Positions 1,324 to 21,533 of a stretch of DNA of 24,000 nucleotides are shown here, one piece after another. Made by a program: the position numbers and the translations under genes. Below the pieces are notes generated by a model, which saw only the letters and a list, made by a program, of their open reading frames with translations, did no database searches and was not told where the DNA came from. Within the stretch, counting starts at the first letter, position 1. The number at the start of each line of letters is the position of its first letter. Source of the DNA: an uncultured Actinomycetes bacterium. GTDB taxonomy: Bacteria > Actinomycetota > Acidimicrobiia > Acidimicrobiales > RAAP-2. The stretch is taken from the NCBI GenBank assembly GCA_963778465.1, contig CAVZUK010000003.1, forward strand, positions 581,328 through 605,327, in the 5' to 3' direction.

Positions 1324-3207
1324 ATGAGCGGCGGGACGTTTCGCAACCCATACGACATCGAAACGCCGGCCGGCGCCGAGGGTTGGGAGTCGATGTACCC
1401 CGACTACCTCCTCTTCAGTGGGGACATGCGGGACCGTGACGAGAACAAGCTCTGGTTCTTCGACCAGATGCACAACCCCGAACCGCTGTACCCGTTCGAC
1501 CTGATGATGCCGGAGAGCTGGCTCGTCTCGCTCAACCAGTACACGACGAGGATCTGGCGCCTGCCCACCGCGCTCGGGATCGAGCACCGCATCGTGAACG
1601 GCTACCTGTACCTCAGCCCCAACGTCATCGACGACCCGGCGATGATCGCCGAGCGCGAGCCGGTCTTTGAGCAGCGCGCCCGCTATTACTTCGAGAACTG
1701 GGACGAGATCTACGACCAGTGGGTCAAGAAGGCCACCGACTGCATCGACCGTCTGAAGACGATGCACTTCGAGCCCCTCCAGGAGTGCGAGCCCGACGAG
1801 ACGGTATTCGGCCGGCGAGGCACCTCGACCGCCTTCGACCTGCTTGTGAACTACAGCCGGCTGCTCGAGAACATGCACGAGATGGCCTACTACCACTTCG
1901 AGATGCTCAATCTCGCCTACGGCGCCTACCTGACCTTCCTCGAGTTCTGCCGCGCCCACTTCCCGGCCATCACCGACGACCTCGTGGCGCGGATGGTGGC
2001 GGGGATCGACGTGATCCTCTACCGGCCCGACCAGGAGCTGCGCAACCTGGCGGTGCGTGCCGTGGAGCTCGGCGTGGGGGACGCCATCTCGGCCGCGGAG
2101 GATCCAGATGACGTCGTCGCGGCCCTCGGGCGCTCGGGCGAGGGCAAGGAGTGGCTGGCCGAGCTCGAGCGGGTCAAGGACCCGTGGTTCTACTACTCGA
2201 CGGGCGCGGGCTACTGCCACGCCAACCGGGCCTGGATCGACGACATGAGGCCACCGTTCGCCGCCCTGCGGGACTACGTGGCCCGGGTGCAGGCCGGGGA
2301 GAGCCTCGTGCGGCCCCTCGAGCATCTCCGATCGGAGCGTGAGCGCATCGCCCACGGCTACCGGGACCTTCTCGACGACGACGCGGCGGCCGCCTTCGAC
2401 AGCCTGCTGGCGCTCTCACGGCAGGTGTTCCCGTTCGTCGAGAACCACAACTTCTACGTCGAGCACTGGCACCACTCGCTCTTCTTCAACAAGGTGCGCG
2501 AGCTCGGCGGCGTCCTCGTGGCCGGCGGTTTGCTCGACCGCGACGACGACATCTTCTTTCTCCACCGCTACGAGGTGTACCGCGTGCTCTACGAGATGGA
2601 GGCTCGTTGGGCCCTGGGCGTTCCGACGCGCAGCGAGCGCATCTGGCGAGACGAGGTTGCGCGCCGGCGACGGATCTACTCGGCGTTGGAGGCCTGGAGC
2701 CCCCCGCCCGCCCTCGGCCGCCCGCCGGAGCGCGTGACCGAGCCGATCACCGTCACGCTGTTCGGCATCAATTCGGAGACGGTGGAGCGCTGGCTCGCCG
2801 CAGAGAACGCCGGCGCGGGCATGAGCGAGCTCGAAGGCCTGGCGGCGTCGCCCGGGGTGGCGGAGGGCCCGGCGCGTGTGGTGCACTCGGTCGCGGAGCT
2901 CGAGGACCTGGTCGACGGGGACATCCTCGTGTGCCCGCTCACGGCGCCGAGCTGGTCCATCGTGTTCGCACGGATCGCCGCAGCGGTCTCCGACGGCGGC
3001 GGCATCATGTCCCATGCGGCCATCGTGTCGCGCGAGTACGAGCTGCCCGCCGTGGTGGCCACGGGCGTGGGCACGAAGGTCATCCGCAGCGGCGACTTCT
3101 TGAGGGTCGACGGCAACACGGGCAAGGTGACCATCCTCGAGCGTGCGGCCGAGCCGGCCGAGCCGGCCGAGCCGGCCGAGCCGGACGAGGCGGCGGCGGT
3201 CCGATGA
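1324..3207 (+). CDS. Phenylphosphate synthase alpha (PpsA)-like subunit: N-terminal substrate-type domain plus C-terminal PEP-utilizing-enzyme mobile (phospho-His swivel) domain
   Basis: C-terminus carries the PEP-utilizer mobile domain: GLAASPGVAEGPARVV...GDILVCPLTAPSWSIVFARIAAAVSDGGGIMSHAAIVSREYELPAVVATG, with the catalytic His in GGIMSHAAI. The N-terminal ~480 aa (GWESMYPDYLLF...LWFFDQMHNPEPLYPFD...IEHRIVNGYLYLSP...YHFEMLNLAYGAYL...GIDVILYRPDQEL) matches my recollection of the PpsA-specific region rather than genuine PEP synthase. I chose the start at ATG 1324 (MSGGTFRNPYDIE) because GGAGGGA lies about 12 nt upstream, it gives 627 aa (about 69 kDa), and the 58 residues upstream of it (from the ORF-track ATG at 1150) are low-complexity. 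Confidence 0.85.
   Translation: MSGGTFRNPYDIETPAGAEGWESMYPDYLLFSGDMRDRDENKLWFFDQMHNPEPLYPFDLMMPESWLVSLNQYTTRIWRLPTALGIEHRIVNGYLYLSPNVIDDPAMIAEREPVFEQRARYYFENWDEIYDQWVKKATDCIDRLKTMHFEPLQECEPDETVFGRRGTSTAFDLLVNYSRLLENMHEMAYYHFEMLNLAYGAYLTFLEFCRAHFPAITDDLVARMVAGIDVILYRPDQELRNLAVRAVELGVGDAISAAEDPDDVVAALGRSGEGKEWLAELERVKDPWFYYSTGAGYCHANRAWIDDMRPPFAALRDYVARVQAGESLVRPLEHLRSERERIAHGYRDLLDDDAAAAFDSLLALSRQVFPFVENHNFYVEHWHHSLFFNKVRELGGVLVAGGLLDRDDDIFFLHRYEVYRVLYEMEARWALGVPTRSERIWRDEVARRRRIYSALEAWSPPPALGRPPERVTEPITVTLFGINSETVERWLAAENAGAGMSELEGLAASPGVAEGPARVVHSVAELEDLVDGDILVCPLTAPSWSIVFARIAAAVSDGGGIMSHAAIVSREYELPAVVATGVGTKVIRSGDFLRVDGNTGKVTILERAAEPAEPAEPAEPDEAAAVR
3148..3183 (+). repeat. Perfect 9-bp tandem repeat (GCCGAGCCG) x4 encoding (AEP)4 at the C-terminal tail of the PpsA-like gene
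   Basis: Copies at 3148-3156, 3157-3165, 3166-3174 and 3175-3183 are identical. They translate to AEPAEPAEPAEP, immediately before the stop/start overlap with the next gene. Confidence 0.95.
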
Positions 3208-4334
3208 GCCAGGTGCACATCGACTCGGAGCGCAAGTTGTTCGGGCCCTCGCCCTACGTCCGGGCGACCTACGCATGCGGACCCGACGACGTCGGCGAGG
3301 TCGGGGGGAAGGCGGTCGGCCTGGGGTCGCTCCTGCGTGCCGGCCAGACGGTGCCCAGGTCCTTCGTCGTCACCTCTTCGGCCTACCGCCGCTACCTGGT
3401 CGGTCGCACCGGCTCCGGCGAGCTCGACGGGGAGCTGCGTGGGCTACCCCCCGAGCTGGCCGACGCCGTCGCCCACGCCTACGGGGTGCTCTGCGACGAA
3501 CGCGGGGCCTCCCTGCCGGTGGCCGTCCGCTCGAGCGCCACGGTCGAGGACTCCGCCGAGTCGAGCTGTGCCGGGCAGTTCCGGACCTTCCTCGGGGCGA
3601 GGGGCGTCGAGCAGGTCCTGGAGGAGGTCGAGCGCTGCTGGATGTCCGCCCTGGACCCCCACGTCGACTCCTACCGCAGCGCGAGGGGTGCCGGCGACGC
3701 GGACGACGCGGTGGCGGTGATCGTCCAGGAGCTCGTGGACGCTCGGGTCGCCGGGGTGATGTTCACGCAGCACCCCCATACCGGGGACCGATCGCTCCTC
3801 GTCATCGAATCCAGCTACGGCCTCGGCGAGGCGGTCGTCGGGGGCGAGGTGACGCCGGACCTCTTCGAGGTGAACAAGGTGACCCGGGAGATCCAGCGGC
3901 GGTCCCGCGGCTCCAAGGCCGTCGAGCACCGTCTCGATCCCGACGGGAGGACCGTCGAGCGCCGGGACGTCGATCCCCGACGGCGTGACGAGTGGTCCCT
4001 CGGCGACGACCGGATCGCCGCTCTGGCCTCGATGGCCTCGGATCTCGAGTCCAAGATCGGTCGGGGCCTCGACATGGAGTGGGCCATCGGGACGATCCGC
4101 ACGGGCGGGACCGCGGCGGACGGCGAGATCTCCGAGCTCTTCGCGCTGCAGGTCCGGCCCATCACCTTCGCCACAGGACCCGGAGGAGCGGGCGCTCCGG
4201 CGGCCGCGGGTGGCCGCGGCGGTCCTCCGGTTCCCCGAGGGGACGCCATCGGCACGATCCTCGGGCACCTGAGCGCCGCCCCCTCCTCGGCCGACTCTTC
4301 GGCCGACGCCTCCGAGGGCGACGACCGACGATGA
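3204..4334 (+). CDS. Phenylphosphate synthase beta (PpsB)-like subunit: PEP/pyruvate-binding (ATP-grasp) domain of the PEP synthase / pyruvate phosphate dikinase family
   Basis: 376 aa (about 40 kDa). Motifs: GGKAVGLGSLLRAG, VAVRSSATVEDSAESSCAGQF, AVAVIVQELVDARVAGVMFTQHP, SLLVIESSYGLGEAVVGGEVTPDLF. ATG 3204 overlaps the upstream TGA (ATGA, 3204-3207). The Gly/Ala/Pro/Ser-rich C-terminal tail is low complexity. Confidence 0.85.
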   Translation: MSQVHIDSERKLFGPSPYVRATYACGPDDVGEVGGKAVGLGSLLRAGQTVPRSFVVTSSAYRRYLVGRTGSGELDGELRGLPPELADAVAHAYGVLCDERGASLPVAVRSSATVEDSAESSCAGQFRTFLGARGVEQVLEEVERCWMSALDPHVDSYRSARGAGDADDAVAVIVQELVDARVAGVMFTQHPHTGDRSLLVIESSYGLGEAVVGGEVTPDLFEVNKVTREIQRRSRGSKAVEHRLDPDGRTVERRDVDPRRRDEWSLGDDRIAALASMASDLESKIGRGLDMEWAIGTIRTGGTAADGEISELFALQVRPITFATGPGGAGAPAAAGGRGGPPVPRGDAIGTILGHLSAAPSSADSSADASEGDDRR

Positions 4335-5704
4335 GCCCGCGCGGTTCCTCCGGAGGCTCCGGCGGCCGGCAACCCTTCGAGCTGTCGGGGTCGGAGTCGC
4401 TCGCGGCGGTGGCCACCGGCGAGCGGTCCGTCAGCGAGATCGTCGGCGGGCTGCTCGAGCGGGTGCGCCAACTCGACGGCGAGATCGGCGCCTTCCGGAT
4501 CTGTGACGCCGATGCGGTCCAGCGCCTTGCCAAGGACCTGGACGACACCGTCGCCGGGCCCCTCTGGGGCCTGGCCGTGGGGGTGAAGGACGTCATCGAC
4601 ACCGCGGACCTCCCGACCGGCTACGGATCCCCGCTGTTCGCCGACCACCGGCCGAGCGAGGACGCACGAGCCGTGGCGACCCTGCGCCGGGCGGGGGCCA
4701 TGGTGCTCGGCAAGACCGAGTCGACCGAGTTCGCCATGTACCAGCCCACCCGGACGCGCAACCCGGTGGATCCGGCTCGGACGCCGGGTGGGTCCTCCAG
4801 CGGGTCCGCGGCCGCGGTGGCGGCCGGCATGGTGCCCGTCGCGCTCGGCACCCAGACCGCGGGATCCGTCGTGCGCCCCGCCGCCTACTGCGGGGTCTAC
4901 GGCTACAAGCCGGCATGGGGCTGGAGCTCGACGGAGGGAATATGGCGGCTGTCCGAACGTCTCGACACGCTCGGGATGTTCGCGAGGACCGTCGCCGACC
5001 TCGAGCTGCTCCACCGAGCGCTCGTCCACGAGAGCCACGGCGGCCCGTCGAGGCCGACCTCACAAAGACGGCCGACCTCTCTCCCTCGGCGCGCCGCCGT
5101 GCTCTCGGCGGGGTCCTGGGGCGACGTGGACCACGACGTCCTCGAGGCCCTCGACCGGGTGGCCGGTCGCCTGGAGGACGGCGGGTGGCGGGTCTCGGAG
5201 CTGGCCATGCCCCACACGTGGCATCGCCTGCCCGAGCACCACCAGATCGTCATGGCGGTCGAGGTGGCCAAGAACCTCCACGGGACCCTCGGACCCCGGG
5301 TCGAGCTGATCTCGGAGGGCGCCCGGCGCATCGTGGAGCAGGGGGACGCCCTACCGGCGCGCCAGTACCTCGCCGCGCTCGAGGCCACCGAGGAGGCCCG
5401 GAACCACCTGGTGCCCCTGGCGGAGGCCACCGACGTGGTCCTCGCCCCGAGCGCCCTCGGCGTCGCGCCGCTCGGGCTGGACGCGACCGGCGATCCGGTG
5501 ATGTGCCGCGCCTGGACGCTGCTCGGGGTGCCGGCGGCCAACGTCCCCTTCCATCGGCGGAGCGACGGCCTCCCGGTCGGGGTGCAGGCCATCGCCCCGC
5601 ACTACGACGACCCCGCCTTTCTCGGCGATCTCTCGTCCCTCGAGACCGCCCTCAGTCAGGAGGCCATCGGCCAGGAGGCCATCAGCCAGGAGGACAGCCC
5701 ATGA
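4331..5704 (+). CDS. Amidase-signature (AS) family amidase
   Basis: 457 aa. Catalytic Lys context GVKDVID, signature GGSSSGSAAAVAAG, nucleophile context GTQTAGSVVRPAAYCGVYGYKP. ATG 4331 overlaps the upstream TGA (ATGA, 4331-4334). Confidence 0.9.
   Translation: MSPRGSSGGSGGRQPFELSGSESLAAVATGERSVSEIVGGLLERVRQLDGEIGAFRICDADAVQRLAKDLDDTVAGPLWGLAVGVKDVIDTADLPTGYGSPLFADHRPSEDARAVATLRRAGAMVLGKTESTEFAMYQPTRTRNPVDPARTPGGSSSGSAAAVAAGMVPVALGTQTAGSVVRPAAYCGVYGYKPAWGWSSTEGIWRLSERLDTLGMFARTVADLELLHRALVHESHGGPSRPTSQRRPTSLPRRAAVLSAGSWGDVDHDVLEALDRVAGRLEDGGWRVSELAMPHTWHRLPEHHQIVMAVEVAKNLHGTLGPRVELISEGARRIVEQGDALPARQYLAALEATEEARNHLVPLAEATDVVLAPSALGVAPLGLDATGDPVMCRAWTLLGVPAANVPFHRRSDGLPVGVQAIAPHYDDPAFLGDLSSLETALSQEAIGQEAISQEDSP
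5657..5695 (+). repeat. 15-bp tandem repeat (CAGGAGGCCATCNGC, 2.6 copies) at the amidase 3' end, each copy containing an AGGAGG Shine-Dalgarno-like core
   Basis: CAGGAGGCCATC at 5657-5668 and 5672-5683, and CAGGAGGAC at 5687-5695. Encodes QEAIGQEAISQED. The last AGGAGG (5688-5693) lies 7 nt upstream of the ATG of the next gene (5701). Confidence 0.9.
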
Positions 5705-6732
5705 ACTACGACTTCGTCAACGTCTGCCGCGAGGAGCTCAGGCTGTGCGGCGTCCACGAGGGCGAGGCGGTGGCGATCTTGAGCTCGGACGGCCCCGACG
5801 AGCTCATGGGACATGCCGCAGCCTTCATGCAGGCAGCCAAGGAGCTCGGGGCGCTCCCCTACCACGTGCGGGTGCCGGCGCAGCGGGGCAAGAGCGCGGC
5901 CACGTGGGACGTCGGGCAGACACCGCTGCAGGGACACGCGCCGGCCATGGCCGCCTTGAAGGAGGCGGACCTCGTCATCGACCTCGTCTTCATGCTCTTC
6001 TCCAAGGAGCAGCTGGAGATCCAGGCCTCGGGCACGCGGATCCTGCTCGCGGTGGAGCCCCCCGACGTCCTGACTCGGCTCCTGCCGAGCCCCGAGCTGC
6101 GGGAACGCGTCGAGTTCGCCGGTGAGCTGCTGACCTCCGCCGAGAGCCTGCGGGTGCAGCACGAGAACGGCACGGACCTCGTGTACCGGCTCGGCCGCTA
6201 TCCCGTGATCACCGAGTGGGGTTACACCGACGAGCCGGGCCGTTGGGACCACTGGCCGTCGGGATTCCTCTTCACCGGCGCCCACGACGACGGCGTCGAC
6301 GGGATGATGGTGCTCAGCCCCGGCACGATCATCTACCCGTTCAAGTCCTACGTCCGCACGCCCATCACGCTCCGCGTGGAGGAGGGTCGGATCACCGGCC
6401 TGTCGGGAGATCTCGATGCCGAGCTCATGCGGGACTACATGGACCAGTTCCGGGACCCCGACGGCTACGCCATCTCGCACATCGGCTGGGGCCTCAACGA
6501 GAAGGCCCTCTGGTCCGGTCCGGTGATGGACACAAGGGGCATCGGCCAGGAGGGCCGCTCCTTCTACGGCAACGTGCTGTTCGCCACGGGACCCAACCAG
6601 GAGCTGGGCGGCACCAACGCGTCGCCGTGCCACCTCGACATCCCGTTGCACGGGTACTCGCTCTCCCTCGACGACCGTCCCGTGATCCGTCACGGCGACG
6701 TCGTGGTCAAGGAGATGCAGCCGCGCAGCTGA
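5701..6732 (+). CDS. NicX-like 2,5-dihydroxypyridine 5,6-dioxygenase family protein (M29 aminopeptidase-like fold)
   Basis: 343 aa. Long colinear blocks match my recollection of Pseudomonas putida NicX: GTRILLAVEPPDVLTRLLP, DEPGRWDHWPSGFLFTG, ISHIGWGL, FYGNVLFATGPNQELGG, PCHLDIPL. The H (ISHIGWGL) and H-x-D (CHLD) positions recalled as the NicX Fe(II) ligands are present. ATG 5701 overlaps the upstream TGA (ATGA, 5701-5704). Confidence 0.85.
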   Translation: MNYDFVNVCREELRLCGVHEGEAVAILSSDGPDELMGHAAAFMQAAKELGALPYHVRVPAQRGKSAATWDVGQTPLQGHAPAMAALKEADLVIDLVFMLFSKEQLEIQASGTRILLAVEPPDVLTRLLPSPELRERVEFAGELLTSAESLRVQHENGTDLVYRLGRYPVITEWGYTDEPGRWDHWPSGFLFTGAHDDGVDGMMVLSPGTIIYPFKSYVRTPITLRVEEGRITGLSGDLDAELMRDYMDQFRDPDGYAISHIGWGLNEKALWSGPVMDTRGIGQEGRSFYGNVLFATGPNQELGGTNASPCHLDIPLHGYSLSLDDRPVIRHGDVVVKEMQPRS

Positions 6733-6764: not shown

Positions 6765-8264
6765 GTGACGAATCTGGAAGCAGGGGCGGCGATCGCTCCT
6801 GGCAAAGGCCGGGACCGATTCGGGAACATCGAGACACGCGGGATCGACATGATCCCCGAGGTCGAACGCAGGTCCAAGCCCCACGAGCTCTTTACCGTGT
6901 TCTTCGGGCCGCAGTTCGGCTACGGGAACATGCTCTTCGGTGCCCTGGCCATCGCCTTCGGCCTCGGGTGGTGGGGAGCCTTCTCCGCCATCACCGTGGG
7001 CTCGCTCGTCGGGTCGCTCGTCTTCCTGGCCGTGACGCCGGTCAGCCCCAAGACGGGCACCAACACGCAGGTGTCGAGCGGTGCGGCCTTCGGCGTGAGG
7101 GGACGTCTCCTCGGCTCCGGCATCACCTGGTTCATCGCCATGGGCTTCTTCGTCATCCTCGTCTACACCTCGGGCGAGGCGATCATCTACACCTTCAATC
7201 GTTGGTGGGGCACCTCGACCAGCCTCACCGCGCTGTCGGTGGCGATGATCGCCGTGATCATCGTCACGTGCGTCTCGGCGGTGCTCGGTCACCGCACCCT
7301 CGAGCGCAGCGTCCGGGTCATCACGATCGCCTCGATCATCGTCGGCATCGGCCTCTTCGGCGTCTTCGCCAACAAGTTCCACGTGACGAGCGGCGGCAAC
7401 TACCTCCTCGGCAGCTTCTGGCCGACCTGGTTCCTGTCCGCCACGACCGCGGCGTCCCTCCCGATCTCGTGGGGTCCCTTCGTCGGCGACTACGGCCGGT
7501 ACATCCCGGCGACCGCCTCCCCCCGCCGGGTGGGCCTCGCCGGGTTCCTCGGGATCTTCCTCGGCTGCTGGGTGGCGATGGTGGCGGCCGCCTTCGCGGC
7601 CACGGCCTTCACCAAGGACGCGGGCAACTTCGTTCCCGGCATCACCGCGGCGGCCCCGACCTGGTTCCTGCTGCCGATGCTCCTCGTGCTCGGGCTCGCC
7701 TCCAACATCGCGAGCGCCGGCATGTCGCTCTACAACGCGGCGCTCGACATCGGCTCGTGGCCGTTCTTCTACCGGGTCAAGCGCTGGCAGATCGCGGTGG
7801 GCCTGAGCGCCATCGCCTTCGGCCTGACCTACCTCCTGGTGGTGGCCACCAACTTCCTCACCAACCTCGAGGCGTTCGTGACGATCATGGTGGTGACCGC
7901 CACGCCGTGGATGGTGTTCGTCGGGATCCACTACCTCATGAACCGGGGGCAGTACTCGCCCGGCGACCTCCACGCCTTTGCCATGCCGGGGGTGAGGGGC
8001 CGGTACTGGTACTGGAAGGGCGTCAACGTACGGGCCGTGTTCGCCTGGGGCGTCGGCGTGGCCCTCGGGCTGATGTTCTCCACCACCAGCCTGTTCACGG
8101 GTCCGCTGGAGAGCTCCGTGCAGGGAGTCGACCTGTCGTGGCTGATGGCCGGCGTCGGCGGCGGCCTCGTCTATCTGCTGCTCATGACGGTCTTCGCCGA
8201 CCGCCGGAGCGAGGTGCCCGACGTGACCGCGGCCACCGCGGAGAAGATGGGCGCCGTCCCGTGA
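6765..8264 (+). CDS. NCS1-family purine/cytosine-type permease
   Basis: 499 aa polytopic membrane protein. The N-terminal cytoplasmic segment NIETRGIDMIPEVERRSKPHELFTVFFGPQF is typical of CodB/FCY2-like NCS1 transporters, and about 12 hydrophobic segments follow. GTG start at 6765 is preceded by AGGAGGG at 6753-6759. Confidence 0.85.
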   Translation: MTNLEAGAAIAPGKGRDRFGNIETRGIDMIPEVERRSKPHELFTVFFGPQFGYGNMLFGALAIAFGLGWWGAFSAITVGSLVGSLVFLAVTPVSPKTGTNTQVSSGAAFGVRGRLLGSGITWFIAMGFFVILVYTSGEAIIYTFNRWWGTSTSLTALSVAMIAVIIVTCVSAVLGHRTLERSVRVITIASIIVGIGLFGVFANKFHVTSGGNYLLGSFWPTWFLSATTAASLPISWGPFVGDYGRYIPATASPRRVGLAGFLGIFLGCWVAMVAAAFAATAFTKDAGNFVPGITAAAPTWFLLPMLLVLGLASNIASAGMSLYNAALDIGSWPFFYRVKRWQIAVGLSAIAFGLTYLLVVATNFLTNLEAFVTIMVVTATPWMVFVGIHYLMNRGQYSPGDLHAFAMPGVRGRYWYWKGVNVRAVFAWGVGVALGLMFSTTSLFTGPLESSVQGVDLSWLMAGVGGGLVYLLLMTVFADRRSEVPDVTAATAEKMGAVP

Positions 8265-9109
8265 GCTCGCCGACGTCGGTGTACTTCCGCTCCGGCGATC
8301 TCCGGATGCACGCCGCGCACCACCGCGGCGCCGGAGGGCTGCCCCTGGTCGTCGTGCCGGGCATCACGACCCCGGCGGGGGCGTTCGCCTTCGCCGCCGA
8401 ACGGCTGGCGGCCTTCGCGGGCGACGTCTACGTCCTCGACATGCGCGGTCGCGGCTACTCGGAGCGGTCGCCCTCGGGCACCCACCGGGCGTCCGACTAC
8501 GCGCAGGACGTCCTCGCGCTCGTCGAGGACCGTGGGCTCGAGGGCGCGGTGCTGGTCGGCCATTCGCTGGGAGCCCGGGTGGTGGCGGCCGCCCGGGCGC
8601 GCTTCCCGGGCTGCGGATCGGGGGTCGTGGCGATCGACCCGCCGATGTCGGGCCCCGGCCGCCGGCCCTACCCGATTCCGCTCGACCGCTTCATCGACGG
8701 CATCCACGGGGCCCGTTCCGGCCTCGGCGAGCAGCAGGCTCGCGAGCACTACCCGACCTGGACCGACGACCAGGTGGCCGCCCGTGGGCAATGGCTCGGC
8801 TCGTGCGACGAGATCGCCGTCGTCGAGAGCTACTCCTGGTTCCACCTGGAGGACTTCCCCCCGGTCTGGAAGGAGGTGGAGCCGCCGGCACTCCTCCTCT
8901 ACGGCGACGAGAGCCCTGTCGTGACGGCGAGCGACGCGGCCGAGCTCGGGGCCGCCAACCCGCGTGCCGCCCTCGCCTCCGTGGCGCACAGCGGCCACAT
9001 GATCCCGTGGGACAACCTCGAGGAGACCCTCCAGCAGATCGAGCTGTTCACCACGAAGCTGGTGACCGACACGACGCACCCGACGACCAACCGACCAGGG
9101 GGTACGTGA
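8261..9109 (+). CDS. Alpha/beta-fold hydrolase (candidate N-formylmaleamate deformylase-type, NicD-like role)
   Basis: 282 aa. PLVVVPGITT (oxyanion region), nucleophile elbow GHSLGA, C-terminal catalytic His context AHSGHMIPWDN. GTG 8261 overlaps the permease TGA (GTGA, 8261-8264). The specific NicD-like role is inferred only from the neighbouring NicX-like gene. Confidence 0.8.
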   Translation: MSSPTSVYFRSGDLRMHAAHHRGAGGLPLVVVPGITTPAGAFAFAAERLAAFAGDVYVLDMRGRGYSERSPSGTHRASDYAQDVLALVEDRGLEGAVLVGHSLGARVVAAARARFPGCGSGVVAIDPPMSGPGRRPYPIPLDRFIDGIHGARSGLGEQQAREHYPTWTDDQVAARGQWLGSCDEIAVVESYSWFHLEDFPPVWKEVEPPALLLYGDESPVVTASDAAELGAANPRAALASVAHSGHMIPWDNLEETLQQIELFTTKLVTDTTHPTTNRPGGT

Positions 9110-9110
9110 C

Positions 9111-9713
9111 TTGACCTCGACCATCGAAGAGGCGCCGCGCTTCGCGCTCGAGACCGAAGTCGAACGCCGCGCCGTGGCGTGGATTGCGCCCTACAGCCAG
9201 GCCTGGCACCTCGAGCGAGCACGGGACTGGCTGGTGTACCTCGACGGGGACTCGACCCTCGAGATGCGGCTCGCCGTCGTCACGCACGACATCGAGAGGA
9301 TGTTCCCCGGCGGACCGCGCTTCGACAAGCGCCACGGTCGGTGGGACGACCCCGACTACCTCTACGCGCACGCCTCTCGGTCTGCCGAGGTGGTCGGCGT
9401 GTGGATCCACGGCGAGGGCCTGGCCGACGGCCTCTCGGTGAGCGAGGTCCGTCGCCTCATCACCCTGCACGAGTTCGGGGGCATCGACGGAGCCGACCTG
9501 GTGCAGGCGGCCGACTCGCTGTCGTTCCTCGAGACCCTCCAAGACGTCGTGTGCAGCTGGGTACGCAAGGGCGAGTGCGACGTGGCCCAGGCGCGGGCCA
9601 AGCATCAGTACATGGCCGACCGGATCCGGATCGCCGAGGCCAAGCGGCTTTCCGAGCCGCTCCTCGAGAGCGCGCTCTCGTCCCTGGACGATCTCGCGCT
9701 GCTCGAGGCGTGA
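9111..9713 (+). CDS. Hypothetical protein with HD-like metal-binding motifs (arrangement reminiscent of DUF4202 / HD superfamily)
   Basis: 200 aa with good GC3 bias. Motifs: VVTHDIERMFPG, ITLHEFGG, AADSLSFLE. TTG start at 9111 lies 1 nt after the hydrolase TGA (9107-9109), suggesting co-transcription. Both the start codon and the family assignment are uncertain. Confidence 0.5.
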   Translation: MTSTIEEAPRFALETEVERRAVAWIAPYSQAWHLERARDWLVYLDGDSTLEMRLAVVTHDIERMFPGGPRFDKRHGRWDDPDYLYAHASRSAEVVGVWIHGEGLADGLSVSEVRRLITLHEFGGIDGADLVQAADSLSFLETLQDVVCSWVRKGECDVAQARAKHQYMADRIRIAEAKRLSEPLLESALSSLDDLALLEA

Positions 9714-9768: not shown

Positions 9769-10188
9769 ATGTTCGACCGGATCCTGTTAGCCGTTGACGG
9801 CTCCGACCACTCCAACCGTGCGCTGGCGCGCGTGATCGAGCTGGCGGGGGAGAAGGACGGCGAGGTGCGGGTCGTCAACGTGCACGAGATCCATTGGGTC
9901 GCACGTGCCGTACCGACGTCCCGGGACGAGGACACCCCAGAGGCCACCGGGCTGGTGGCCGACACGCTCAAGCAGCTCGAGGGTGCGGGGGTCAAGGCGT
10001 CGGGGGCCGTCCGCCAGTCGCTGTCGGGGCGGATCGCCGCCGAGATCTGCGAGGAGGCGGCCGACTGGGCAGCCTCGGTCATCGTCCTCGGGACCAGGGG
10101 CCACACCGACCTGGAGAGCGTCCTCCTCGGCAGCGTGTGCCACCGCGTGCTGCACCTCGCCAAGGTTCCCGTCCTCGTGGTCCCCTGA
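9769..10188 (+). CDS. Universal stress protein (UspA family)
   Basis: 139 aa. MFDRILLAVDGSDHSNRAL...VIVLGTRGHTDLESVLLGSVCHRVLHLAKVPVLVVP (G-x2-G-x9-G-S ATP-binding motif). GGGGAGGA Shine-Dalgarno sequence upstream. Confidence 0.9.
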   Translation: MFDRILLAVDGSDHSNRALARVIELAGEKDGEVRVVNVHEIHWVARAVPTSRDEDTPEATGLVADTLKQLEGAGVKASGAVRQSLSGRIAAEICEEAADWAASVIVLGTRGHTDLESVLLGSVCHRVLHLAKVPVLVVP

Positions 10189-14615: not shown

Positions 14616-16040
14616 CTAGCCCGCTCCCGACATCCCGAGCTCTGACGACCCGAGCGGTTCGAAGCTTCCCGGCGAACGCCGGGCCTCGAGCCTGCGCAGC
14701 GGGAAGTACACGAGCGCCGCCACCACGAATCCGACGTAAAAGGAGATGTCGGCTCCGTCGAGAGCCTTGGCCGCCGGCCCGACGAGCAGGCCCGTGTTCA
14801 TAAAGGGAACCATCGCGCCAAAGCCGACGATCAGGGCCACCAATGCCGACCAGCCGGACACCAGCCGACGGAAGTCCATGAGATGTGAGAGACGGGTCGG
14901 GGTGAGCGAGCTGCGCACGTAGTGCCAGTCGATGAGGAGGACGGCAAGGAACGGCGCGATCCAGTACGCCGAGAAGAGCAGGATGTTCTGGAAGCGGATC
15001 GAAGTGTCGCCCCCGTGGATCCAGAGGATGAGGAAGAACGCGAGCACGGTGCCGACGAGGGCGCTGCGGTTCCGCCGGAGCCGGATGCCGCCCGCCTGGA
15101 TCGCGAGTGAGCCCGAGTAGTCGTTCATGGCGTTGCTCGCGATGGCGCCGACGACGATGGCGACGAGCGCGAGGACGCCCAGGGCTCCGCCCCCCATGAG
15201 CGTCTTCACCCCGGCCGCCGTCTGGTCGGTCAGGGTCCTGGCCCCCGCCAGCCCGATCGCGTACATCCAGACGAACGAGGCGACGAGGCCGGCCAGTGTC
15301 AGCATCAGGAGCGGCGTGCGGGGGGTGTTCCGGGGCTGGTAGCGGCTGTAGTCGGCCGCGTAGCTGGCCCAGCTGAACGATCCGCTGAAGGCGATCGTCG
15401 TCATGAGCACGAAGGCTCCCACCTCCGCCCCACCGTGCACGGTGCCCTGCATGGGGAGGTTCCCGTGCTGGAGGATCTTGACCGAAAGGACGACGAAGAG
15501 GACGCTCAGGACGGCGCTCCCCCACTGCTCCAGCTGGTGGATGAACTCGTAGCCGAGGAAGCCGACGGCGCCTTCGAGCGCCAGCACGATCAGCACCCCG
15601 ACGGCGAAGGGCACGTGGAACAGGAGCTGTGCCGCCTCGCCCCCGAAGAGCCCGACGAGGGCGTCCCAGGCCACCGAGCTGAGCCACTGCACGGCCGCCG
15701 GGACGGCGATCGTGCGGCCGAAGGGCAGCCGGGCGAGCGGCAGCTGGCCCATGCCCGTCTGGGGGCCCCACGTCGCGAGGTAGGCCACGGGCAGGGCGCC
15801 GAGGACCACGCCGACCACGATGGCCGCCAGGCCAGGCCAGAAGCCGAGCCCCAGGGTGACCGCCAGCGTCCCGGTGAACACGGCGGAGAGCTCGAGGTTG
15901 GGTGCGAACCAGACGGTGAAATTCCGCCAGGAGGCTCCGTACCGGGCGTTCTCGGGGACGGGGGCCATCCCGTGGGTCTCGAGGACCAGGTCGCCGTGGC
16001 GGGCCGGCTTCGTGCCTTCGAACACGCTCGCCTGCGGCAT
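14616..16040 (-). CDS. NCS1-family purine/cytosine-type permease (second, divergent paralog)
   Basis: 474 aa from ATG 16040, with GGAGGA upstream. LETHGMAPVPENARYGASWRNFTVWFAPNLE matches the NCS1 N-terminal motif. Polytopic membrane protein. The ORF-track 5' extension to 16277 is low-complexity. Confidence 0.85.
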   Translation of the reverse strand: MPQASVFEGTKPARHGDLVLETHGMAPVPENARYGASWRNFTVWFAPNLELSAVFTGTLAVTLGLGFWPGLAAIVVGVVLGALPVAYLATWGPQTGMGQLPLARLPFGRTIAVPAAVQWLSSVAWDALVGLFGGEAAQLLFHVPFAVGVLIVLALEGAVGFLGYEFIHQLEQWGSAVLSVLFVVLSVKILQHGNLPMQGTVHGGAEVGAFVLMTTIAFSGSFSWASYAADYSRYQPRNTPRTPLLMLTLAGLVASFVWMYAIGLAGARTLTDQTAAGVKTLMGGGALGVLALVAIVVGAIASNAMNDYSGSLAIQAGGIRLRRNRSALVGTVLAFFLILWIHGGDTSIRFQNILLFSAYWIAPFLAVLLIDWHYVRSSLTPTRLSHLMDFRRLVSGWSALVALIVGFGAMVPFMNTGLLVGPAAKALDGADISFYVGFVVAALVYFPLRRLEARRSPGSFEPLGSSELGMSGAG

Positions 16041-16054
16041 CGATCCTCCGTGTC

Positions 16055-16122
16055 TCTCGGTCAGGGGCGGTCTCGGTCCGGGACCGCCTCGGTCAGTGGC
16101 GCTGGGCCGGTCGCTCTCGGTC
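16055..16122. repeat. Periodic CTCGGTC direct repeats (three 16-bp units plus a fourth copy) in a 268-bp divergent intergenic region
   Basis: Units TCTCGGTCAGGGGCGG (16055-16070), TCTCGGTCCGGGACCG (16071-16086) and CCTCGGTCAGTGGCGC (16087-16102). A fourth CTCGGTC lies at 16116-16122. Embedded palindrome CGGTCC-G-GGACCG at 16074-16086. Confidence 0.7.
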
Positions 16123-16308
16123 GGTGGTCGGCATCGACCGACGCCGGGATACCCGAAGCGTACGGCGGGCCAGGGGTGGCGTCGCGCCCGGCGGCCGCTC
16201 GGAGCGGCAAGGCCTGCGCTCGGGGGCCGGCCGGTAAGCTGGCGGGGTTCGCTGGCCGACGAGGGACCGATGGTCACGGGTGTGATCCTCGGAGGGAGGG
16301 TGCCGAGC

Positions 16309-17808
16309 GTGCAACGACAGGAACGCGATCAGGCGCTGCATCCGGCGGACCAAGCCTTCGTGGCGATGGACCGCCGGAACAGCCCGATGAACATGTCCGT
16401 GCTGGTGATGCTCGACGAGTCGCGCGGCTCGCTGGAGGAGTGGCGGCGGTATCTCGACTCCCGGCTCGACCGGGTGCCCCGGTGGCGACAGAGGGTGGTC
16501 ACCCTGCCCCTCGGCATCGGCCGGCCGGTCTGGGTGGATGACCAGGAGTTCGACATCGCCAACCACGTCCAGGGCGTCCGGCTGGACCTCGACGGTGACG
16601 ACGTCCTCCACGAGCTGGCGGCGCGTCTGCACGGTGCGAGGCAGTCGATGCGGCACTCGCCGTGGCTCATCACGGTCGTGGACCAACCCTCTCGCCAATC
16701 CCTGGCCATACGGGCGCACCACGTCCTGGCCGACGGGGTCGGGAGCGTGGAGATCGGGCAGGCGATCTTCGACCTGGCGGGACTTCAGGTCGAGGACGGC
16801 CCTGCGGATGGCTCCGCCGAGGAGTCGCCTCCGGCTGCCGCCGTGGAGCCCGCGGCGTCGTCGGGTGCGGCGGAGCGGCTACGGGCCGACATCGTCCAGA
16901 ACGTCGAGGTGGTGCGCTCGCTCGCGTCGGATCGGATGGCGATGGTCCCGAGGGTGGTGGAGACCGTCCGGCGGCTCCCCACCCGCCTGCAGTCGAGTGC
17001 GCTCACCGGCGTGCTCGAGCTCGCCAAGGGCGTGGTCACCGGGCCGGTCGTGGCGCTCGGCTCCCCCTTCGCCCGGCGGGTGGGCCCCGGTCGGCACTTC
17101 GAGGGGCTCCACTTCCCGTTGGATCAGGTCAAGCGCATCAAGGACGCCGCCGGGTGCAAGGTGAACGACGTGGTCCTCGCGGTCGTGACCTCCGGGGCGC
17201 GGGCCGTCTTCGACGTCCACGGCCTGCCCGACCGCTCGCGCCTCCGGATCGCCGTGCCGGTCGACGTGCGCCAACCCGAGGACCCGACCTTCGGCAACTA
17301 CCTCTCGGTCCGGCGGATCGAGGCACCGATCTCCCCCATCCCCAGCCTCGCCCACGTCTCGAGCGTGGCCGACGCCGGGCGAGCCTCGGTCGAGGGCGAG
17401 ATCGATCTCAGCTTCCACGAGTTCATGAACATGGCGGAGCTGCTCCCGCCGTTGGCCGTCCGCACGATGGCCCGGGCGGTCGCCCGGCTCCCGCTCTTCG
17501 ACGTCTTCGTCTCGAACATCCCCGGACCACCGCCATTGAGTGTCCGAGGCGCGAAGGTCGTCGACATCATTGGCAACCTCCCCTCGGGACCCCGCACCCC
17601 GATCGCGGTCTGTGCCTGCAGCTACGACGGGACGATGTCGATCAGCGTGGTCGCCGACGACAGGGGCCAAGACGATGCGTCCACCCTCCGGGACGCCATG
17701 GCGGCTGCCTTCGACGAGCTCCGCGCCGAGGCCGACGAGAGGCTCGCCCCTGCCGTCAAGGGCAGGGGCAAGCGCACCGATCGCGAGCCGGTGTCACCCC
17801 GGGCCTGA
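16309..17808 (+). CDS. WS/DGAT-family wax ester synthase / diacylglycerol O-acyltransferase
   Basis: Catalytic HHxxxDG motif (IRAHHVLADGVGS), N-terminal LHPADQAFVAMD...MNMSVLVMLD, and a C-terminal DUF1298-type region (NDVVLAVVTSGARAV...VSNIPGPP). I prefer GTG 16309 (GGAGGGAGGG at 16291-16300, 8-nt spacing). ATG 16270 is an in-frame alternative. Confidence 0.85.
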   Translation: MQRQERDQALHPADQAFVAMDRRNSPMNMSVLVMLDESRGSLEEWRRYLDSRLDRVPRWRQRVVTLPLGIGRPVWVDDQEFDIANHVQGVRLDLDGDDVLHELAARLHGARQSMRHSPWLITVVDQPSRQSLAIRAHHVLADGVGSVEIGQAIFDLAGLQVEDGPADGSAEESPPAAAVEPAASSGAAERLRADIVQNVEVVRSLASDRMAMVPRVVETVRRLPTRLQSSALTGVLELAKGVVTGPVVALGSPFARRVGPGRHFEGLHFPLDQVKRIKDAAGCKVNDVVLAVVTSGARAVFDVHGLPDRSRLRIAVPVDVRQPEDPTFGNYLSVRRIEAPISPIPSLAHVSSVADAGRASVEGEIDLSFHEFMNMAELLPPLAVRTMARAVARLPLFDVFVSNIPGPPPLSVRGAKVVDIIGNLPSGPRTPIAVCACSYDGTMSISVVADDRGQDDASTLRDAMAAAFDELRAEADERLAPAVKGRGKRTDREPVSPRA

Positions 17809-19077
17809 CCTCCGGCGCACGATCGCGTCCACCACGGCCCGCGCCACGAGCCGCTTGTCGGCCAGGTCGACGGGCTGCTCGCTCCCGTCGGCACCGATGA
17901 TGACGACGGCATTGGTATCGCCCTCGAAGCCGACGCCGGGCTGAGAGACGTCGTTCGCCACGATGAGGTCCACGCCCTTGCGGCGGAGCTTTGCCGCCGC
18001 GTTGTCGTGCAGGTCGTTGGTCTCCGCCGCGAAGCCGACGAGCACCTGCCCGGGCCCTCGTCGCTCGCCCAGGCCCGCCAGGATGTCCGGTGTCGGCTCG
18101 AGGACGAGGTGGGGGACCCCGTCGGCCTTGCTGATCTTGGTCGCCGCTGCGGCCTTGGGCCGGAAGTCGGCCACGGCGGCGGCCATCACCACCACGTCCG
18201 CCGAGGCGCTGCGGGCCGATATCGCACTCTCCATCTCCGCTGCCGTGTCGACGCGCACGATCTCGATCCCCGTCGCCGTCGGCAACGACACCGTCGTGAT
18301 CAACGTGACCAGGGCGCCCCGCGCGGCCACCTCGTCGGCGATGGCATGACCCTGCTTGCCCGACGACCGGTTGCCGACGAAGCGAACCGGGTCGATGGGC
18401 TCTCGGGTGCCCCCGGCGCTGACCAGCACCCTCGCTCCGGCCAGGTCGTGTCGCCGCGGTTCCTCGCCCGGAGCCGCGGCCGGGAGGGCGGCCACCAGCG
18501 CGGCCAGGACGTCCTCCGGTTCGGCCAGGCGCCCGGCACCCGAGTCCCCGCCGGCCAGACGCCCGACGCCGGGGGGCACGATGTGGACACCGCGGCGCCG
18601 GAGGACCTCGAGGTTGTCCACCACTGCGGGGTGCTCCCACATCTCCGTGTGCATGGCCGGGCAGATCACGACCGGCGCCCGCGTCGCGAGGAGCGTCGCG
18701 CAGAGGAGATCGTCCGCCAGACCGTGGGCGTATCGGGCTATCAGATGTGCGGTGGCCGGCGCAACGAGGATGACGTCCGCGCTCTGGCCGAGGTGGGTGT
18801 GGGGGATGGGATCCGCGTCATCGAAGAGGGAGCGGCGAACGGGCTCGGAGGCCAGCGCGGAGAAGGTCACGTCGCCGACGAAGCGGCCGGCCTCGTCGGT
18901 GAGCACCGGGACGACGATCGCGCCGGCGTCCACCATCCGGCGACAGAGCTCGACCGCCTTGTAGGCGGAGATCCCCCCGGTGACACCCAGCACGATGCGC
19001 CGACCGAGCAGCTCGGCGAGCTCCTGCCCGGCAGGGTCCGAGGAATCCGGGATCGGTCCGTCGTGGTCGTTGCTCAC
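17794..19077 (-). CDS. coaBC: Bifunctional phosphopantothenoylcysteine decarboxylase / phosphopantothenate-cysteine ligase
   Basis: 427 aa. N-terminal flavoprotein domain (RIVLGVTGGISAYKAVELCRRM, VILVAPATAHLIARYAHGLADDLL, PAMHTEMWEHPA) and C-terminal CoaB domain (VLVSAGGTREPIDPVRFVGNRSSGKQG, AAAVADFRP, GFAAET). Its 3' end overlaps the convergent WS/DGAT 3' end by 15 nt. Confidence 0.95.
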   Translation of the reverse strand: MSNDHDGPIPDSSDPAGQELAELLGRRIVLGVTGGISAYKAVELCRRMVDAGAIVVPVLTDEAGRFVGDVTFSALASEPVRRSLFDDADPIPHTHLGQSADVILVAPATAHLIARYAHGLADDLLCATLLATRAPVVICPAMHTEMWEHPAVVDNLEVLRRRGVHIVPPGVGRLAGGDSGAGRLAEPEDVLAALVAALPAAAPGEEPRRHDLAGARVLVSAGGTREPIDPVRFVGNRSSGKQGHAIADEVAARGALVTLITTVSLPTATGIEIVRVDTAAEMESAISARSASADVVVMAAAVADFRPKAAAATKISKADGVPHLVLEPTPDILAGLGERRGPGQVLVGFAAETNDLHDNAAAKLRRKGVDLIVANDVSQPGVGFEGDTNAVVIIGADGSEQPVDLADKRLVARAVVDAIVRRRSGPG

Positions 19078-19168: not shown

Positions 19169-20029
19169 TCACCGCAGCGGCTCGAGCACCCGGGCGAGCG
19201 GCTCCATCACGGAGGGGGACAGGGGCGGCATCAGGTAGACGATGGCGAGGTCCAGCCCCTCACCGGCGAGCGCGTCGACCTGCTCGGCGGTCTTGACGAG
19301 GTCGTCGTCGAATCCCGAGGCCAGCCAGACGTGGCTCGAGAGGGTGATCTCCCCCGGGTCCCGCCCGACGTCCGCGCAGTGGGCGTGCAGGACGTCCCGC
19401 TTGCGTGCGAAATCCTCCGGCGTTCCGCCGAGGAAATTCCAGTGCTGGGCGAAACGGGCGGCGGTGCGCAGCGTCCTTCGCTCGCCGTTGCCGCCGACGA
19501 CGATCGGCGGGTGGGGAGTCTGGCGAGCCTTGGGCTCGCAGCGGGCGTCGGCCATCCGGTAGTAGGCGCCGGAGAAGTCCGTGGTCCGCTGCGAGAGCAG
19601 CCCGACCAGTACCTCGCAGGCCTCCTCGAACCGGTCGCTGCGCTCTCGGGGGCTTCCGAGCTCGATGCCGTAGGCGGAGGACTCCTGCTCGTTCCAGCCC
19701 GCGCCGACGCCGAGCTCGAGGCGGCCGCCCGAGACGATGTCGATGGTGGCGGCCATGTTCGCGAGCACGGCCGGGTTCCGGTACGGGATGCCCGTCACGA
19801 GGGTGCCCAGGCGTAGCCGGCGGGTCGCCTGGGCGAGCGCGGCGAGCATCGTCCACCCCTCGAGGCAGGGACCGCCGGGATCCGGCTGCCCCCTCGGCGA
19901 CCAGATGGGGTAGAAGTGGTCGAAGAGCCAACCCGACTCGTAGAGGTCGATGCCGTCGGCCTCCCTCCACACGGCCAGGATCTCTTCCCAGGTGGTGTCG
20001 TGGTTGGCGGTCTTGAACGCGAAGCGCAT
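19169..20029 (-). CDS. Luciferase-like monooxygenase (LLM) class, probable F420-dependent oxidoreductase
   Basis: 286 aa from ATG 20029 (GAGGAGG upstream). MRFAFKTANHDTTWEEIL...GWLFDHF...LGTLVTGIPYRNPAVLANMAATIDIVSGGRLELGVGAGW is typical of the small LLM/F420 TIM-barrel class. It is embedded in a 790-aa composite ORF that is not a single gene. Confidence 0.85.
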   Translation of the reverse strand: MRFAFKTANHDTTWEEILAVWREADGIDLYESGWLFDHFYPIWSPRGQPDPGGPCLEGWTMLAALAQATRRLRLGTLVTGIPYRNPAVLANMAATIDIVSGGRLELGVGAGWNEQESSAYGIELGSPRERSDRFEEACEVLVGLLSQRTTDFSGAYYRMADARCEPKARQTPHPPIVVGGNGERRTLRTAARFAQHWNFLGGTPEDFARKRDVLHAHCADVGRDPGEITLSSHVWLASGFDDDLVKTAEQVDALAGEGLDLAIVYLMPPLSPSVMEPLARVLEPLR

Positions 20030-20095
20030 CGTGCCTCCTCGCCTCTCGTGCGTCGCGGGTTGGGACGCAGTGCCGTCTCCCGGCATCATGGCATC

Positions 20096-20494
20096 GTGAC
20101 CGATCGCGCGACGCTGCGCCGATGGCTGCGGGCCTACGAGGACGCCTGGCGAGCGCCCGGCACGGAGACCCTGGCAACGCTCTTCACGGAGGACGCGAGC
20201 TACCTGCACTCTCCGTACGAGGAGCCCGTCTCGGGTCTCGAGGCGATCCGCCGGATGTGGGAGCGCGATCGTGGCGGTCCCGACGAGGTCTTCACGTTCG
20301 CCGCGGAGATCGTCGCGGTCGACGGGTCGGTGGCCGTCGTCCGTGCCGAGGTCCGCTACGGCGATCCGGTCCGTCAGGAGTACCGGGACCTCTGGGTCCT
20401 GCGGTTGGGGGCCGACGGGCGCTGCAGCGAATTCGAGGAGTGGCCCTACTGGCCGGGTCGCCCCTACGTCCCCGATGCCGAGTCGTCCGGCTGA
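20096..20494 (+). CDS. NTF2-like / SnoaL-like domain protein
   Basis: 132 aa from GTG 20096. LRRWLRAYEDAWRAPGTETLATLFTEDASYLHSPYEEPVSGLEAIRRMWE...VAVVRAEVRYGD...YRDLWVLRLGADGRCSEFEEW has the alpha+beta cone pattern of SnoaL/DUF4440 proteins. No clear Shine-Dalgarno sequence, so it may be leaderless. Family call is moderate. Confidence 0.6.
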   Translation: MTDRATLRRWLRAYEDAWRAPGTETLATLFTEDASYLHSPYEEPVSGLEAIRRMWERDRGGPDEVFTFAAEIVAVDGSVAVVRAEVRYGDPVRQEYRDLWVLRLGADGRCSEFEEWPYWPGRPYVPDAESSG

Positions 20495-21454: not shown

Positions 21455-21533
21455 GGGAAGACCTCCCCCTTGATTTTGGGGCCGTATTTGGCTCTGCGAC
21501 CACACTCTGGGACTGCCGTGCAGCAAGAATGGC

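Follow-up and report, generated by a model that had tools for sequence, protein, structure and literature searches.

A two-gene dikinase in a maleamate-pathway operon of an uncultured actinomycete and its probable role in 3-hydroxypyridine breakdown

What does a split dikinase resembling phenylphosphate synthase phosphorylate when it is encoded amid genes for an aerobic N-heterocycle pathway? The question is raised by two overlapping genes (1324-3207 and 3204-4334, + strand) in a stretch of 24,000 nucleotides from an uncultured Actinomycetes bacterium (contig CAVZUK010000003.1, positions 581,328 to 605,327; the whole stretch is called the window below). The initial annotation had described them as an orphan PpsA/PpsB-like pair of split, permuted architecture in an aerobic setting. 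The same gene pair in the same type of cluster has already been reported as essential for the conversion of 3-hydroxypyridine (bioRxiv 10.1101/2020.01.08.898148), and the comparisons presented here suggest that the pair probably phosphorylates 3-hydroxypyridine within a cluster of this type (3hpd), a molybdenum hydroxylase then acting on the ester and an HD-fold protein serving as the phosphatase.

The dikinase pair

The G+C content of the window is about 71%, and gene calling relied on a GC3 frame plot together with open reading frames and their translations, which agree with the initial annotation on the coordinates, sizes (627 and 376 aa) and motif of the pair. The ATG of the small-subunit gene overlaps the stop codon of the large-subunit gene (ATGA). 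The large subunit, which contains the motif GGIMSHAAIVSRE, has a PEP-utilizers mobile (swivel) domain at residues 531-600 (Pfam, E 2.8e-19), and residues 32-322 of the small subunit form a PPDK_N (ATP-grasp) domain (Pfam, E 3.7e-71). Over its full length the large subunit belongs to the NCBIfam family PRK08296.1-5 (801 bits against a cutoff of 578), which bears only the name 'hypothetical protein'. The earlier identification of a split PpsA/PpsB-type dikinase with a catalytic His is borne out by these domains and by the conservation of His564, which lies in S556-D-G-G-G-I-M-S-H564; both this residue and the Met at -2 are invariant in 86 of 86 homologues, bona fide PpsA included. The sequence fits the pattern T/SxxGGxxxH with Met, not a regulatory Thr, at -2, which is the motif of HpeH, CreH and PpsA (PMC12167813).

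The likeness to rifampin phosphotransferase (RPH) on which the initial annotation drew is evident in the AlphaFold2 (AF2) model of the large subunit (pLDDT 85), which matches the Listeria enzyme (RPH-Lm) over about 610-640 columns and both domains (E ~1e-16). His564 aligns with the catalytic His region of RPH. Structures of pyruvate phosphate dikinase (PPDK), of the phosphoenolpyruvate (PEP) synthase type and of Enzyme I match the model in the swivel domain only (about 120-150 columns for PPDK and Enzyme I). On the evidence of this model, the large subunit has an RPH-type substrate-binding fold and not the PEP/pyruvate TIM barrel. A function as PEP synthase or PPDK was considered and rejected, as the large subunit lacks a PEP/pyruvate-binding domain and has the RPH-type domain instead. 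The small subunit matches the crystal structure of HpeI (9GOJ, E 2e-42).

PpsA and PpsB of Azoarcus sp. KH32C are 42.5% (E 5e-167) and 39% (E 6e-54) identical to the pair, and the large subunit is 43.7% identical to the Cre-like protein of R. ruber and 44.9% to the Hpe/Acv-like protein of R. leguminosarum, each of these large-subunit alignments extending over 96% of its length. Sequence comparison thus places the pair, as the two presumptive components of an ATP-dependent small-molecule dikinase, in the PpsAB/CreHI/HpeHI subfamily. The pair does not qualify as a strict phenylphosphate synthase, because the window holds no PpsC or carboxylase genes and the large subunit falls outside the PpsA branch. 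As the initial annotation had stated for PpsC and a UbiD/UbiX carboxylase, searches of the window with PpsC (CBS), PpcABDG, UbiD and UbiX of Azoarcus sp. KH32C found nothing (all E > 0.2), and there is likewise no PpsC, Ppc, UbiD or UbiX match in 21.8 kb of the closely related locus L008. The coaBC gene (17797-19077) was considered as a hidden UbiX and rejected, as its product has DFP and Flavoprotein domains and no match with the UbiX of the Azoarcus cluster (L003).

Neither the split, permuted architecture nor the aerobic context is unusual. PpsAB, CreHI, HpeHI, AcvAB and Orf10/Orf9 of the 3hpd cluster are all split likewise, and CreHI (acting on 4-cresol) and HpeHI (on hydroxyphenylethanones) are characterised aerobic split dikinases (PMC12167813, PMC9618137). 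Gene order varies among the clusters, the ATP-grasp gene coming first in the Cre-like cluster L006. The statement that the His swivel domain comes last in single-chain relatives holds for RPH but not for PEP synthase, in which the His domain is central (positions 355-461 of 798 in the NCBIfam profile).

HpeHI of Rhodococcus rhodochrous GD02 (HpeI structure 9GOJ) resembles the pair in its components of about 70 and 40 kDa, its RPH-like fold, its aerobic catabolic context and its T/SxxGGxxxH motif with Met at -2. It differs in belonging to another clade (the Hpe/Acv-like large subunit of L004 is about 45% identical), in having Cys where the pair has Ser before the catalytic His, and in its partners, a biotin carboxylase and a HAD-type phosphatase, compared with a Mo-hydroxylase and an HD-fold protein here. 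His581 of HpeH is essential, and HpeH resembles the rifampin (RIF)-binding and swivel domains of RPH (PMC12167813), a likeness that the model of the large subunit reproduces. CreHI, the 4-cresol kinase of Corynebacterium glutamicum, is also split and aerobic and has Ser before the catalytic His; its cluster includes CreD, a phosphohydrolase (PMC7764795), and the gene at the creD position of L006 codes for an HD-domain protein. Unlike the pair, which is about 43% identical to it, the Cre system has a P450 system acting on the methyl group as its partner, and its ATP-grasp gene is the first of the two in L006. PpsABC of Thauera and Azoarcus shares with the pair the order A then B, the subunit sizes and, by homology, the His-phosphate dikinase mechanism, whereas the window pair lacks PpsC, Ppc, UbiD and UbiX, is 42% and 39% identical, stands outside the PpsA branch and belongs to an aerobic pathway. 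In RPH (PDB 5FBT, 5HV1) the substrate-binding and swivel domains superpose on the large subunit and the ATP-grasp domain is homologous to the small one, but RPH is a single chain with ATP-grasp first, is only about 17% identical and serves antibiotic resistance, not catabolism.

Two features of the chain ends may be recorded here. A 9-bp unit repeated 5.4 times in frame (3146-3194) encodes (AEP)n at the large-subunit C-terminus, immediately ahead of the overlap in which the small-subunit gene begins. The small subunit ends in a low-complexity tail of about 40-50 aa, and its length exceeds that of its counterparts in L001 and L002 (336 and 345 aa) by 30-40 aa.

Operon, relatives and the 3hpd cluster

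The pair is not an orphan: it is the first cistron pair of a + strand maleamate-pathway operon, and a four-component Mo-hydroxylase flanks it in its closest relatives. The features of this part of the window are as follows.

1-168, +: GntR/FCD regulator gene, 3' end only, truncated at the window border and corresponding to 3hpd orf7 (tblastn, GntR of L001 as query: residues 169-224 of 225, 55% identity, E 5e-12)
293-1102, +: IclR-family transcriptional regulator (Pfam HTH_IclR and IclR_C)
1151-1189: candidate operator, an inverted repeat with the palindrome GTTCC-N7-GGAAC at 1172-1188
1324-3207, +: dikinase large subunit (Orf10/PpsA/CreH/HpeH type), with substrate-binding and His swivel domains
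3013-3015, +: codon of the predicted catalytic His564, motif S-D-G-G-G-I-M-S-H
3204-4334, +: dikinase small subunit (Orf9/PpsB/CreI/HpeI type), the ATP-grasp nucleotide-binding component
4328-5704, +: amidase-signature amidase (Pfam Amidase, E 3e-77), putative maleamate amidase
5698-6732, +: NicX/HpdB, 2,5-dihydroxypyridine 5,6-dioxygenase (phmmer against the solved NicX, PDB 7CN3: E 3.3e-96, residues 9-339)
6765-8264, +: NCS1 family permease, candidate substrate importer (Pfam Transp_cyt_pur, E 2.5e-46)
8306-9109, +: alpha/beta hydrolase (Pfam Abhydrolase_1 and Abhydrolase_6), putative N-formylmaleamate deformylase (HpdC/NicD role)
9111-9713, +: 200-aa Orf8 homologue of probable HD fold, candidate phosphohydrolase (Foldseek, motif, profile-profile comparison)
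9769-10188, +: universal stress protein (Pfam Usp, E 7e-31), last gene of the strand run

The flanking Fe(II) dioxygenase of the initial annotation is therefore NicX (E 3e-96 to 7CN3). Homologues of the large subunit number in the thousands, the best reaching 81% identity in the protein collection and 95% among GTDB genomes, the latter at locus L008 from an uncultured Actinomycetes metagenome-assembled genome that aligns collinearly with the window, about 90% of the nucleotides being identical. L008 belongs to a group of relatives (L001, L002, L008-L017) with large subunits 74-95% identical to that of the window, in which one strand carries the genes for the molybdenum cofactor (Moco), 2Fe-2S, CoxG/SRPBCC and FAD subunits of a four-component Mo-hydroxylase, and the divergent strand those for GntR, IclR, large subunit, small subunit, amidase, NicX, NCS1 permease, hydrolase and 200-aa protein, a maleate isomerase gene often closing the row. 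The IclR gene is kept at the same position in L001, L002, L008-L012 and L014-L016, and the amidase and NCS1 permease are both position-conserved in the close subclade. The hydroxylase genes of L008 lie directly upstream of GntR-IclR; the window itself starts within the GntR gene, and by analogy with these relatives a four-component Mo-hydroxylase would be encoded just beyond its left edge.

A neighbour-joining tree of 86 large subunits was built with reference clusters taken from plasmids: the canonical ppsA-ppsB-ppsC(CBS)-ppcBDAG-UbiD-UbiX cluster of Azoarcus sp. KH32C (L003), a Hpe/Acv-like cluster with biotin carboxylase and HAD hydrolase (L004), and a Cre-like cluster with P450, ferredoxin, reductase, two HD-domain proteins and aldehyde dehydrogenase (L006). 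The best plasmid match of the window large subunit is 49.9% identical. The grouping with PpsA that the initial annotation had presumed is not recovered, as the window protein falls in a 47-member clade with maximal support (100/100 bootstrap) that leaves out the kinases for phenol (PpsA, L003), cresol (Cre-like, L006) and acetovanillone (Hpe/Acv-like, L004), and that includes the homologues from Salinicola peritrichatus JCM 18795 (L038) and Pseudonocardia ammonioxydans NZ_FOUY01000096 (L042). Neighbourhoods were counted for loci of at least 15 kb, 34 of them in the clade and 19 outside. At least one HpdA-like hydroxylase subunit is encoded at all 34 in-clade loci (2/19 outside) and at least three such subunits at 30 of them (0/19 outside); homologues of the 200-aa protein occur at 29/34 and NicX at 22/34, neither being found at any of the 19 others. 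Among the fetched loci, pps-ppc genes were seen only in the canonical cluster L003.

The tree also contains several well-separated clades of two-component dikinases (L050-L086, L005, L007), 48-52% identical to the window protein, whose neighbourhoods are neither of the hydroxylase, NicX, Pps, Cre nor Hpe kind, and many of which adjoin IclR regulators. In Thermomicrobium roseum the dikinase pair lies near a three-subunit enzyme of the xanthine dehydrogenase family and a biotin carboxylase. Several large uncharacterised clades of two-component dikinases thus have other neighbourhoods.

In Ensifer adhaerens HP1, 3-hydroxypyridine (3HP) is converted to 2,5-dihydroxypyridine (2,5-DHP) by the four-component HpdA1-4, which has a separate SRPBCC subunit; orf9 (annotated 'pyruvate-phosphate dikinase') and orf10 (PEP-utilising mobile domain) are needed alongside hpdA1-4 for this conversion, knock-out strains no longer grow on 3HP, and the study did not settle what the kinase does (bioRxiv 10.1101/2020.01.08.898148). 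The supplement to that study counts P. ammonioxydans NZ_FOUY01000096 and Salinicola peritrichatus JCM 18795 among its orthologous clusters (bioRxiv 10.1101/2020.01.08.898148), and the order of its locus tags makes orf10/orf9 the homologues of the pair, orf8 that of gene 9111-9713 and orf7 the GntR gene. Given the clade shared with L038 and L042, together with these locus tags, the pair can be regarded as orthologous to Orf10/Orf9, and as far as the window allows the cluster would be an actinobacterial variant of the published 3hpd cluster. The alpha/beta hydrolase (8306-9109) is 45% identical to the P. ammonioxydans gene listed as hpdC in the 3hpd paper.

The two clusters have in common the two-gene kinase, the HpdA hydroxylase (in the relatives here), NicX/HpdB, the deformylase/HpdC, Orf8 and GntR (Orf7). 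Unlike that of Ensifer, the present cluster belongs to an actinomycete with about 71% GC, and its variant features are a different gene order, an extra IclR regulator, an NCS1 transporter in place of an ABC transporter, and an amidase-signature amidase in place of the NicF type. The kinase genes adjoin hpdA in Ensifer but head the maleamate operon here, with GntR and IclR between them and the hydroxylase, and the maleate isomerase (HpdE) is not in the window. By itself, one more variant of a known catabolic cluster, here from an actinobacterium, changes little.

Regarding the amidase step, P. ammonioxydans has an isochorismatase-like HpdD (L042 1662-2414, NicF-type by eye) where the window has the amidase-signature enzyme (4328-5704), so that this step appears to have undergone non-orthologous displacement. 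The amidase gene carries an in-frame tandem repeat at the C-terminus of its product (5648-5693, 15-bp unit repeated 3.1 times). After the cluster, L001, L009-L012 and L014 have a maleate isomerase gene, which is absent from both the window and L008.

The product of gene 9111-9713 has no Pfam or NCBIfam match and its homologues are all annotated as hypothetical, yet its family (about 200 aa, 430 relatives) is co-conserved with the kinase and the Mo-hydroxylase in Actinomycetota and Proteobacteria (for example L040 8817-9479, L038 17483-18124 and L042 6924-7532). It is 57% identical to the P. ammonioxydans gene between hpdA3 and hpdC, listed as orf8 in the 3hpd supplement, and in proteobacterial clusters the orf8 homologue directly follows the Moco subunit gene, whose stop codon it overlaps in L040. 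The AF2 model (pLDDT 93.7) is all-helical, and its top Foldseek matches in the PDB are the HD-domain phosphohydrolases YpgQ (5dqw), Lin1889 (3b57), BH2835 (3dto) and 3djb, with TM 0.55-0.64, probability 0.96-1.0 and weak E-values (0.01-0.5). Residues H33, H59-D60, H87, H120-E121, D129 and D135 are invariant across 23 members, down to 32% identity, an arrangement that corresponds to the H...HD...H...H...D pattern of HD metal sites. Profile-profile comparison (hhalign) with the HD proteins at the creD position of Cre-like clusters gave E 1.2e-4 over 156 columns (probability 55%), with the invariant residues aligned; a shallow profile against single sequences gave E 0.017-0.088, and BLASTP against two HD proteins was not significant. 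When 40 family members were compared with Pfam at E up to 10, weak DUF4202 matches appeared in 16 of them (best E 0.0017). The assignment of this protein as an HD-fold phosphohydrolase may be called moderately supported.

A proposed phosphorylation step and its alternatives

We infer that 3-hydroxypyridine is phosphorylated, that the ester is the substrate of the hydroxylase and that the HD-fold protein is the phosphatase. Homology to PpsAB, HpeHI and rifampin phosphotransferase suggests the following catalytic cycle: ATP would be presented by the small ATP-grasp subunit, His564 of the swivel domain would take the beta-phosphoryl group with release of AMP and Pi, and the swivel domain would carry it to the hydroxyl of a substrate held in the N-terminal helical domain of the large subunit. 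The pair would thereby convert 3-hydroxypyridine and ATP to pyridin-3-yl phosphate, AMP and Pi; the HpdA-type four-component Mo-hydroxylase presumably encoded just left of the window would hydroxylate C6 of this ester; and the HD-fold Orf8 homologue would hydrolyse the 6-hydroxypyridin-3-yl phosphate to 2,5-dihydroxypyridine. NicX would then open the ring, the alpha/beta hydrolase would remove formate, and the amidase would yield maleate and ammonia. The substrate of the pair is in this scheme most likely 3-hydroxypyridine, which the NCS1 permease would import.

A chemical rationale for such a detour can be suggested. Hydroxylases of the xanthine oxidase family proceed by nucleophilic attack of Mo-OH on an electron-poor carbon beside a ring nitrogen, and the 3-olate or zwitterion (pyridinium-olate) of 3-hydroxypyridine puts electron density on C6, para to the oxygen. 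O-phosphorylation would block the electron-rich pyridinium-olate form and expose C6 to attack, and the phosphate could also act as a binding handle. The Hpe pathway offers a close analogy, in that its next enzyme, a carboxylase, takes only the phosphorylated substrate and HpeD then dephosphorylates (PMC9618137); the same logic of a kinase, an enzyme acting on the phosphate ester and a dedicated phosphatase is proposed here.

Several observations weigh against this proposal. The Ensifer study detected only 2,5-DHP and no phosphorylated intermediate (bioRxiv 10.1101/2020.01.08.898148). In the same study orf7-orf8 were dispensable for the conversion in a heterologous host (bioRxiv 10.1101/2020.01.08.898148), which weakens the assignment of the HD-fold protein as the phosphatase, although host phosphatases could have replaced it there. 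The HD assignment itself rests on fold and motif: the Pfam comparison of 40 family members returned no significant HD match (HD in 1/40), and a profile search of PDB sequences with the family gave chance matches to gelsolin only. The hydroxylase is not inside the window, its presence in the source genome being deduced from relatives, and a maleate isomerase was not found in the window either. Finally, the identity of the large subunit to the members of its clade from proteobacteria and Pseudonocardia is only about 53-58%, so the substrate could be a related hydroxy-N-heterocycle.

This last point leads to the likeliest of the rivals, that the pair acts on another hydroxylated aromatic or N-heterocycle (a pyridinol, a hydroxypyridine carboxylate or a pyrimidinol) funnelling into 2,5-dihydroxypyridine. 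Besides the limited identity to members from the clusters named in the 3hpd paper, the NCS1 transporter found where Ensifer has an ABC system, the subclade's own amidase type and the acceptance of several related phenols by HpeHI would all be compatible with a different substrate. We nevertheless consider it rather unlikely, as the clade is monophyletic (100/100), the hydroxylase with its separate SRPBCC subunit, Orf8 and NicX accompany the kinase across the whole clade, and the 3hpd paper itself counts actinobacterial clusters as orthologous. It is very unlikely, in our estimation, that the dikinase serves to activate or mature the hydroxylase, for instance through phosphorylation of a subunit or a cofactor, and leaves the small molecule untouched. 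Such a role would explain why only 2,5-DHP and no phosphorylated intermediate was detected in Ensifer, where the authors left the matter open, but every characterised member of the subfamily phosphorylates a small-molecule phenolic hydroxyl, the large subunit keeps its RPH-like small-molecule-binding domain, and the co-conserved HD-fold hydrolase fits a small phosphate-ester intermediate.

Even less can be said for a true phenylphosphate synthase acting on phenol, with ppsC and a UbiD/UbiX-type carboxylase elsewhere in the genome, which we regard as extremely improbable. The identities of 42% and 39% to PpsA and PpsB and the equal subunit sizes would accord with it, whereas the position of the large subunit outside the PpsA branch, the lack of PpsC, Ppc, UbiD and UbiX in the window and in the 21.8 kb of L008, the translational coupling of the pair into an aerobic NicX operon, and the hydroxylase and NicX genes of in-clade loci (pps-ppc being confined to L003 among those fetched) all speak against it. 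The view in the initial annotation that the acceptor is probably not phenol is accordingly upheld, and a hydroxylated N-heterocycle is very probably the acceptor.

These comparisons do sharpen a question left by the 2020 Ensifer study, namely why a molybdenum hydroxylase needs a dikinase. Kinase, hydroxylase and the previously unassigned HD-fold protein travel together across 34 loci (29/34 with the HD-fold protein), and in the characterised sister systems Pps, Cre and Hpe the kinase is always coupled to an ester-acting enzyme and a phosphate-removing step; taken together, these suggest a concrete mechanism of pyridinol activation, with Orf8 as the candidate for the missing phosphatase. Tentatively, and with some reservation, kinase, four-component Mo-hydroxylase and HD-fold Orf8 may be seen as a conserved module that phosphorylates, hydroxylates and dephosphorylates. 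If so, the hydroxylase would be the first molybdenum hydroxylase to require a phosphate-ester substrate, and Orf8 a new, very divergent aryl-phosphate phosphohydrolase of the HD family.

Regulatory sequences and other genes of the window

An inverted repeat with arms of 15 nt each (1151-1165 and 1175-1189) lies between the IclR and kinase genes. GTTCC-N7-GGAAC (1172-1188) is a perfect palindrome with a single exact match in the window, and the box is kept upstream of the orthologous gene in L001, L002, L008, L011, L012 and L014, which makes it a candidate operator of the IclR or the GntR regulator. A scan of the operon for sigma-70 promoters and terminators gave nothing above chance.

At the other end of the strand run, membership of the universal stress protein gene (9769-10188) in the pathway is doubtful, since it has the same position only in L008, its homologue in L011 and L014 lies on the opposite strand, just downstream, and other loci have a maleate isomerase there. 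The remaining genes of the window are unrelated and include an acyl-CoA ligase-type enzyme, a TetR regulator, a TMEM175-like protein, a dienelactone hydrolase, a second NCS1 permease, WS/DGAT, CoaBC, a luciferase-like (LLM) oxidoreductase, a GH15 hydrolase and an FHA protein. The second NCS1 permease (14616-16277, - strand), some 6 kb downstream of the operon, is only 24% identical to the operon permease, and no link between it and the pathway was established. A 790-aa open reading frame (19169-21541, - strand) joins low-molecular-weight phosphatase/ArsC-like and LLM domains through about 350 aa of implausible sequence; its GC3 phase shifts twice, and it is probably not a fusion but a read-through of two or three genes in high-GC DNA, or else contains a frameshift.

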